Below are positions 1,257-57,684 of a stretch of 64,000 nucleotides of DNA, in pieces. This stretch comes from Octopus vulgaris. Its lineage: Eukaryota. Made by a program: the position numbers and the translations under genes. Under the pieces are notes generated by a model, which worked only from the letters and a program-made list of their open reading frames with translations, did not search any database and was not told the origin of the DNA. How positions within the stretch are numbered: the stretch's first letter is position 1; every line of letters begins with the position of its first letter. The stretch lies in the NCBI GenBank assembly GCA_951406725.2, contig OX597832.1, forward strand, positions 22,444,001 to 22,508,000. The letters are read 5' to 3'.

Positions 1257-1600
1257 CGGAGATGTACTCGCATAGCAAGTAATTTGATCTGAGATCGTGT
1301 GCTGAAACGAAAACAGTTGCAGCGTGGAAGGTGTTTATAAGCCATTTAAGAAACACACAAAAGCCGTTCGATTCACTTCAACATTTAAGCTTAATTTGTC
1401 AAAATATTTTCGTCGCTAAAATCCGCGACCTGTTCACTGACAAAAATCCGTGCTGAGATGCAGCACGGATTTTTGTCGGTGAACAGGTCGCGGATTTTAG
1501 CGACGAAAATATTTTGACAAATTAAACTTAAATGTTGAAGTGAATCGAACGGCTTTTGTGTGTTTCTTAAATGGCTTATAAACACCTTCCACGCTGCAAT

Positions 1601-1602
<2 letters not shown>
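1254..1602. mobile_element. Foldback Penelope-like non-autonomous element (family F1) between (TA)n tracts
   Basis: Inverted arms 1314-1455 and 1461-1602 with a 5-nt loop and few mismatches; related copies at 27192-27397 and 23883-24039. Confidence 0.7.
1472..1521 (+). ncRNA. Putative minimal hammerhead ribozyme with G3-C8 core (mirror copy on - strand at 1395-1444)
   Basis: Stem I UUUGUCG/UGACAAA; core GUGAACA+G; stem II GUCGC/GCGAC; GAAA; palindromic stem III AAUAUU. Manual fold only. Confidence 0.55.
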
Positions 1603-23882: not shown

Positions 23883-24039
23883 TATGGAGATATACTTGCA
23901 TAGCAAGTGACTTGATCTGAGATTGTGTACTGAAACAAAAACCATTGAAGTGTGGAAGCTGTTTATAATCCATTTAAAAACCCCACAAAATCCGTTAGAT
24001 TCACTTCAACATTTAAATTTAATTTATCAAAATATTTTC
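23883..24039 (-). mobile_element. Truncated, diverged copy of family F1
   Basis: ggagatatacttgcatagcaag...tcaaaatattttc matches 1256-1411; adjacent to (TA)n; breaks within the ribozyme-like motif. Confidence 0.7.
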
Positions 24040-26733: not shown

Positions 26734-27176
26734 AAATATTAGGGAATAAATCCAAACTTACAAGGAAAAATCAGATTTAGGATTGAATCCAATTTTATAG
26801 TAAAATATTATATTATATTAAATTAGAGATAAAACCACTATTAGGCAAATCATACAATGAAAAACTTAAGCCAATACATAAGATTATTTAATTTATATTA
26901 TTTAAATATATATCAAAATTATTAAAAAAGATAATTAATATAACACTACGATCGTTTCATGGCTGTTCAATTCTTAAAATTTTCGAGTTGCAGTCATTCC
27001 GAAAATTTTAAGAATTGAACAGCCATGAAACGATCGTAGTGTTATATTAATTATCTTTTTTAATAATTTTGATATATATTTAAATAATATAAATTAAATA
27101 ATCTTATGTATTGGCTTAAGTTTTTCATTGTATGATTTGCCTAATAGTGGTTTTATCTCTAATTTAATATAATATA
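26730..27176. mobile_element. Foldback element (family F3) between (TA)n tracts
   Basis: Arms 26809-26985 and 27000-27176 appear perfectly complementary, with a 14-nt loop; partial copy at 57570-57686. Confidence 0.7.
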
Positions 27177-27205
27177 TATATATATATATGTATGCAGCAC
27201 GGATT

Positions 27206-27256
27206 TTTGTCAGTGAACAGGTCGCGGCCTTAGAGCGACGAAAATATTTTGACAAA
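27206..27256 (+). ncRNA. Putative minimal hammerhead ribozyme with G3-C8 core, within F1 copy 27192-27397
   Basis: UUUGUCA GUGAACA G GUCGC(ggccuuaga)GCGAC GAAA AUAUUU UGACAAA; stems conserved versus the 1.5-kb copy while loop II differs. Confidence 0.6.
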
Positions 27257-27777
27257 TTAAACTTAAATGTTGAAGTGAATCGAATGGCCTTTGTGTGTTT
27301 CATAAATGGCTTACAAACACCTTCCACGCTGCAATTGTTTTCGTTTCAGCACACGATCTCAGATCAAAGCACTTGCTATGCAAGTACATCCCCGTACTTC
27401 CAGTATTATTTTTCTAGTATTATTTTCCCTTTCTCGTTTACACTTAAATCTTTACATTCAAGTGGTTTTATACTCGCAAAAACATTTACCCATGCATACA
27501 CGCACACATATATACAGACACATACATATGCATATACATTGAAGCAGATAGACACATATTTATATAAAGAAGGAGGAACAAAAATATACATGTTGATGTT
27601 AATTTTAATATTTTTCAGTTTCAGAATTTATTATTGGACATGTCAGACTGAAGTGGACAGGTATCTCAGTTGCATAAATTTATCATAATTCATTTGCGAA
27701 TAATATATCATATACACCACTTATTTATCAACTTGGTTCAGACAATTATATTGACACGCATACAGAATGTATGTACG

Positions 27778-57569: not shown

Positions 57570-57684
57570 ACTAATAGTGGTTTTATCTCTAATTTAATAT
57601 AATATAATATTTTACTATAAAATTGGATTCAATCCTAAATCTGATTTTTCCCTGTAAGTTTGGATTTATTCCCTAATATTTTAT

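Follow-up and report, generated by a model that had tools for sequence, protein, structure and literature searches.

A predicted minimal hammerhead with a G3-C8 core pair in the pLTR of a Penelope-like retroelement of Octopus vulgaris

The motif at the centre of this study lies in a 64,000-nt stretch of the Octopus vulgaris genome (the window), and by its sequence it is a predicted type I hammerhead of the minimal kind, situated in the pLTR that belongs to a Penelope-like retroelement (PLE) with a Neptune-type ORF. The canonical hammerhead core has C3...G8, and few features of hammerheads are as conserved as the C3-G8 pair. The lineage described here carried G3-C8 in place of C3-G8, and in the reading that we regard as the probable one, the pLTR hammerhead would be a weak self-cleaving RNA assisted by dimer formation or by a protein. 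A sequence-only reading of the window had proposed a hammerhead fold with G3-C8 fixed in a repeat family, and this was borne out by thousands of genomic copies. It overlooked what the repeat is, namely the pLTR of a PLE.

All three hammerhead motifs of that reading were found where it had placed them (Table 1). The forward-strand motif at 1472–1521 showed the A2.1→G change, with the pairing kept as G-U, and the 8-nt loop II that it had described. The three are not independent copies, since 1255–1455 (−) and 1458–1602 (+) belong to a single inverted insertion. The core elements U4 G5 A6, A9, G12 A13 A14, A15.1-U16.1 and H17 were all present in the G3-C8 motif; C3 and G8 were not, and G3 and C8 stood instead. 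A Watson-Crick-compatible 3-8 pair, stems I and II with G10.1-C11.1, and a palindrome permitting a dimer were also found. The earlier reading was right that an extra nucleotide follows A9, but this is no oddity, being a conserved trait of PLE hammerheads according to the text of Cervera and de la Peña (2014; PMC4209133). A dimer-type stem III is likewise normal for PLE hammerheads.

The MFE fold of 27195–27265 consisted of stems I and II, which had a pair probability of at least 0.92 in 80–260 nt of transcript context from one long copy. When the window copy was folded as a dimer without constraints, the MFE structure was another duplex and not the active dimer. A descriptor of the minimal hammerhead in which positions 3 and 8 were left free matched exactly three sites in the window, the three motifs. 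The same descriptor gave 1 match in 20 Markov controls of the window, and none with a Watson-Crick 3-8 pair. The Rfam scan found no hammerhead match in the G3-C8 motif and missed the sister copies with a canonical core too, and Rfam scans were therefore uninformative here.

Table 1. Copies of the pLTR in the window and parts of the focal hammerhead motif.
Feature	Position	Strand	Remark
Inverted partner of the 1458–1602 insertion, with tail; hammerhead 1444–1395	1255–1455	−	
pLTR copy without tail, ending at the first 3′-end site; hammerhead 1472–1521	1458–1602	+	
Fourth pLTR copy, older, 5′-truncated, beginning at G12, without G3-C8 core	23883–24039	−	
Solo pLTR copy (~205 bp), family A, Penelope-like retroelement; adjoins (TA)n run	27192–27396	+	Same sequence flanks RT-EN ORF of long copies
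Stem I, 5′ strand	27206–27212	+	Hammerhead
Core G3 U4 G5 A6 A7 C8 A9 (G3 = 27213, C8 = 27218, A9 = 27219)	27213–27219	+	
Extra nucleotide (G) between A9 and G10.1	27220	+	Typical of PLE minimal hammerheads (text of PMC4209133)
Stem II, 5 bp, closed by G10.1-C11.1 (strands 27221–27225 and 27235–27239); loop II variable	27221–27239	+	
G12 A13 A14 A15.1 (27240–27243), then U17 (27249)	27240–27249	+	
Stem III region, self-complementary AAUAUU	27243–27248	+	Palindrome
Predicted cut	Between 27249 and 27250	+	Deduced from the usual numbering of hammerheads
Stem I, 3′ strand	27250–27256	+	Hammerhead

Several other repeats were observed in the window. Just upstream of the focal copy, positions 26805–27181 form a 377-bp near-perfect palindrome (97%); its ends recur at 57571–57615, and it resembles a foldback or MITE element. 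A very abundant core of ~62 bp, present at 1085–1146 and in about 20 other places, belongs to another short repeat, which is probably a SINE. A ~430-bp repeat at 1770–2704 is tandem duplicated and begins directly after a (TA)n run.

The G3-C8 motif was located at the 5′ end of a ~205-bp repeat, and upstream of it in long copies RT and GIY-YIG were found on the same strand. Twenty long RT copies were examined, from at least 44 listed. In 17 of these the motif was situated ~1.0–1.4 kb downstream of the RT/GIY-YIG ORF, and the remaining three comprised one with a decayed motif and two with none. Locus L139 contained an open frame of 997 aa (P0002) with RT including YVDD, a Cx3CxxC linker and GIY-YIG, the last recognized by Pfam (PF01541, E 1.6e-5). 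RT was identified by its motifs and by 111 homologues, and the Pfam RVT_1 match was weak (E 0.052, fragment only). The closest named protein was from Octopus vulgaris, with 57% identity. The ORF was followed by a pLTR in L139, and a pLTR ran directly into the ORF in L145.

Among 98 copies, which were sampled with the pattern 3′ of the cut site, an inverted partner was present in 55. Their 3′ ends fell at two sites ~60 nt apart (37 and 50 copies, respectively), which is the signature of a PLE tail. A single ORF with RT and then a C-terminal GIY-YIG, pLTRs on both sides, inverted 5′-truncated partners and an optional tail together identify an EN+ PLE. The CX2-5CxxC linker before GIY-YIG, the CCHH motif and the (TA)n targets agree with Neptune, and Nematis shares the linker; both the Cx3CxxC and the CCHH residues were read in P0002. 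The Neptune (or Nematis) layout and the definition by linker and CCHH follow the text of PMC8557442.

Some copies had undergone further rearrangement. Seven of the 98 (L166, L169, L207, L209, L210, L214, and L235) had one identical inverted junction with the core truncated at position −34, indicating that an inverted pair, once rearranged, had been amplified as a unit. A mariner-like transposase fragment, recognized by eye, interrupted one long PLE copy within its 3′ region (L111, 1473–2765). Directly beside the pLTR copy in L071 (+, 1570–2115), a 182-aa frame resembled dCMP deaminase by eye and is possibly a retrocopy.

The G3 pattern had 7,292 matches in the 2.8-Gb genome, against 1 for the reversed-pattern control. 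C8 was present in 6,852 of them and absent from 440; the G3-C8 counts are of exact matches and hence lower bounds. The G8 patterns gave 1,947 matches, mostly from families B and C with the canonical C3-G8. In families B and C the 3′ part of the pLTR was homologous, and PLE endonuclease or RT fragments (35–53% identity to P0002) were found near 11 of 60 family B/C loci. Family D, an old sister PLE family with 46 matches, comprised U3·G8 (30), C3-G8 (6), U3-A8 (6) and others (4). Judged by these cores, it is a putative second non-canonical hammerhead lineage, and since U3·G8 prevails in it, a poor 3-8 pair does not keep this PLE lineage from spreading. Stem III of family D was poorly palindromic (e.g., L038, L045, and L302–L314).

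Family E, an older relative of family A, had a median between-copy identity of 76% vs. 91% in A. It differed from A by another loop II, another N7 and a 4-nt palindrome, with the swap kept. The young family A has the swap in common with the much older family E, which bears on the age of the swap. A pattern left free at positions 3 and 8 had 18 matches: five in family B, all C3-G8, and 13 in family E. The latter comprised six G3-C8, four A3-C8 and three G3-A8, with neither C3-C8 nor G3-G8; per position, G3 was found in 9/13 and A3 in 4/13, C8 in 10/13 and A8 in 3/13.

In a tree of 57 hand-picked rows with positions 3 and 8 masked, A and E were set apart from B, C and D at 100/99. A larger tree of 72 rows, masked in the same way, separated them at 92/85, with one short B copy misplaced and L355 excluded for low coverage; both trees were unrooted. 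Over 56 distinct rows, all hand-picked relatives, the 3-8 pair was CG in 19, GC in 15, UG in 10 and unpaired in 12, and stem II was 88% paired across the families. In stem III the palindrome likewise covaried from family to family, and it was self-complementary in A (AAUAUU), E (AAUU) and B (AGAUUU). C17 was found only in family B with C3-G8, and U17 occurred also in families C and D. Outside this genome, the loose ends listed for contigs of four organisms had the same core letters.

We infer that C3-G8 is ancestral, on the basis of its general conservation, and the G3-C8 swap appears to have arisen once from it. Family-wide covariation had been proposed as a check of the motif. Within this genome, homologous sister families did show natural covariation to C3-G8, but it is not independent covariation, as one evolutionary event is counted many times.

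The insertion footprints provided information on the RNA of the element. Of the 5′ ends of the 98 copies, 54 were located 55–69 nt upstream of the predicted cut and six further upstream; 34 lay between 54 and 3 nt upstream, three lay downstream, and one was at the site (within 2 nt). There was no pile-up of genomic 5′ ends at the predicted cut among these copies, and the junction of the lone copy starting there is also explicable by its inverted partner. Fifteen of 25 short copies had a G before the AG that precedes ATG, and the same position was C or U in all five long copies. For this excess the binomial p was 2e-4 against 0.25, after one spurious match was removed and with two rows that resemble one duplicated insertion; about five to six of the 15 could derive from the inverted partner. 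The extra G is likely a cap trace. Since a single copy starts at the cut and more than half start 55–69 nt upstream, often with the extra G, a capped transcript likely begins ~60 nt ahead of the cut site and is copied without having been cleaved. The genomic copies are compatible with cleavage of RNAs that never integrate. An uncut template agrees with the Anolis PLE, in which unprocessed RNA was described as the main template (PMC11167929).

The ~25-nt stretch that precedes the pLTR start (L003, L087, and L139) has the look of branch point, pyrimidine tract and AG, as at an acceptor, and is also initiator-like. An intron of Drosophila Penelope ends at helix I. A spliced junction at the AG upstream of the pLTR was found neither in the 98 copies nor in the contigs examined.

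The mechanism that we propose is as follows. Transcription would start ~60 nt upstream of the cut site, and the capped RNA would stay mostly whole, since a single motif is unable to form stem III, and would serve as both mRNA and template. Two motifs, for example those in both pLTRs of a read-through transcript, would pair via AAUAUU and cut after U17. The dimer cut would probably be slow and helped by the protein of the element. The swap would have been kept because the 3-8 pair still matters, and U17, already present in the C3 and U3 relatives, may have permitted it by avoiding a G3-C17 mispair. That U17 was a compensatory change arising with G3 was rejected, since families C and D have it too. 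The text of PMC3884650, giving it as "data not shown", reports higher activity of a G3-C8 variant when C17 is absent. Partial rescue by the C3G/G8C double change has been described for a PLE hammerhead whose cleavage requires the PLE protein (PMC11167929).

In L011, L013, and L024 the pLTR, or its first ~55 nt, was repeated head to tail in retrozyme-like arrays. Such arrays would place several hammerheads on one transcript.

A less likely explanation is that the hammerhead of this lineage has lost all or nearly all catalytic activity, G3-C8 having arisen by chance from two mutations in a master element. The fold would then persist as a 5′-UTR, promoter or protein-binding element, or by hitch-hiking. 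The uncut templates (1/98 starting at the cut) fit this explanation, as does the preponderance of U3·G8 in family D (30/46). PLE insertion in vitro was unaffected by hammerhead mutants and did not require cleavage, according to PMC11167929. The variation within family A points the same way. In 71 copies covering the motif, shared variants were found at 5/9 sites of loop II, which varies freely, 0/12 of the core, 0/4 of the palindrome and 7/79 of the 3′ flank, the 79 sites including a constrained 23-nt search anchor. The difference between core and 3′ flank was not significant (0/12 vs. 7/79), and the core minor-allele fraction was 1.8%. The sequence-only reading had staked its case on a core more conserved than the flanking sequence, and within the young family A that expectation was partly disappointed. 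Stem variants in family A were mostly CpG decay, or A→G with the U·G pair kept.

Position 8 was unusually mutable between C and G, which also agrees with a dead fold: at the equivalent of 27218, G was found in 34/100 of the copies without C8. The C8→G change had about five times the rate of G3→C, and the inverted partner from the same insertion usually did not show it. By extrapolation, the genome holds ~150 G3·G8 copies (34/100 × 440) vs. ~30 C3·C8 copies (10/100 × 305). The excess of C8→G may reflect a hotspot of copying errors or of mutation. An intermediate subfamily with G3·G8, which these copy numbers had suggested, was rejected, because most inverted partners keep C8 (C8 in six, G8 in two and one ambiguous, from the 9 of 24 examined that cover position 8) and the copies are spread over several subfamilies.

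Against a dead fold, only two core changes are fixed in A and E, and these are mutually complementary and restore a Watson-Crick pair. At position 3, G→C was the least frequent form of decay (10 of the 72 listed). The other core bases, G10.1-C11.1 and a palindrome were kept from A to the far older E, and loop II and N7 changed. The stronger argument for selection is to be sought across families and not within A.

Full activity, in which the G3-C8 hammerhead would process the element RNA efficiently and cut RNAs would never be integrated, is improbable. In its favor, the pair probabilities of stems I and II are high, and cleavage could go unseen in genomic copies: a cut in the downstream pLTR would leave a 5′ product without the 3′ regions in which copies end, and the uncapped 3′ product may be degraded. 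However, the monomer has no stem III and no obvious loop-loop contact. PLE minimal hammerheads were reported to be slow even as dimers (PMC4209133), and the double swap brought partial rescue only (PMC11167929; PMC8495972). It is very improbable, and largely refuted, that overlapping protein-coding sequence, and not RNA structure, keeps the core letters fixed: although a frame is open across the whole pLTR in some subfamilies and the Anolis PLE ORF is described as starting inside the hammerhead (PMC11167929), coding constraint on the core was rejected on the ORF-frame stop just after the hammerhead in L145, where the pLTR-ORF junction is continuous, and on the 1-nt indels, some ahead of the core and some within loop II, by which subfamilies differ, and the first ATG in L145 is ~70–140 nt further 3′.

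If the weak, assisted hammerhead is taken as the starting point, the octopus element may, as a tentative proposal, represent the first natural long-lived G3-C8 hammerhead lineage, active as a dimer, beside the C3-G8 and U3·G8 lineages, in a series that tunes cleavage down. A capped retroelement mRNA with a ribozyme in its first 70 nt would then still be translated and copied. For PLE hammerhead function, the genome offers three homologous core states (C-G, G-C, and U·G) and thousands of insertion footprints, so that the cleavage rate could be compared directly with the success of each family and with the evidence that copies originate from uncut RNA. A G3-C8 family of thousands of copies is invisible to standard searches because these fix CUGANGA; hammerhead counts, including those for "hammerhead-less" PLE clades, may therefore be underestimates. 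A very large set of PLE-linked hammerhead variants has reportedly been assembled by Lünse et al. The literature searched, outside which lay most subscription papers, figures and supplements, contained G3-C8 as an engineered mutant only and no natural case, and the only natural 3-8 swap in it was U3-A8.

Among natural core variants, compensatory change of the 3-8 tertiary pair is known (Perreault et al., 2011; PMC3088659). The text of that paper lists U3-A8, A6C, insertions and U15.1-A16.1, and G3-C8 is absent from it. The minimal PLE hammerheads (Cervera and de la Peña, 2014; PMC4209133) share with the octopus motif the type I motif in the pLTR, G10.1-C11.1, the palindromic stem III, the extra nucleotide between 9 and 10.1, and the occurrence mostly as solo copies and inverted pairs. 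Their consensus is CUGANGA, whereas GUGANCA was found here in about 6,850 exact matches. One core covariant is reported in the text of that study, U3-A8 in Schistosoma.

The Poseidon PLE of Anolis, PAc (Frangieh et al., 2024; PMC11167929), also has a pLTR hammerhead, two 3′-end sites that give rise to a tail, AT-rich targets and uncut RNA as template. In PAc the C3G/G8C change was engineered and gave partial rescue, whereas in the octopus element it is the natural state. The octopus element further differs from PAc, as described there, in its Neptune/Nematis-type Cx3CxxC linker and in a core that lies outside the ORF. The non-LTR retrozymes and the repeats of the Sm-alpha type are likewise short non-coding hammerhead repeats from PLE pLTRs (bioRxiv 10.64898/2026.07.22.740005). 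Tandem non-coding units characterize retrozymes, and tandem runs were found in 2/30 octopus loci (L011 and L013). In contrast to the retrozymes, the octopus copies are mostly dispersed solo pLTRs or inverted pairs, and their coding parent is present in the genome.
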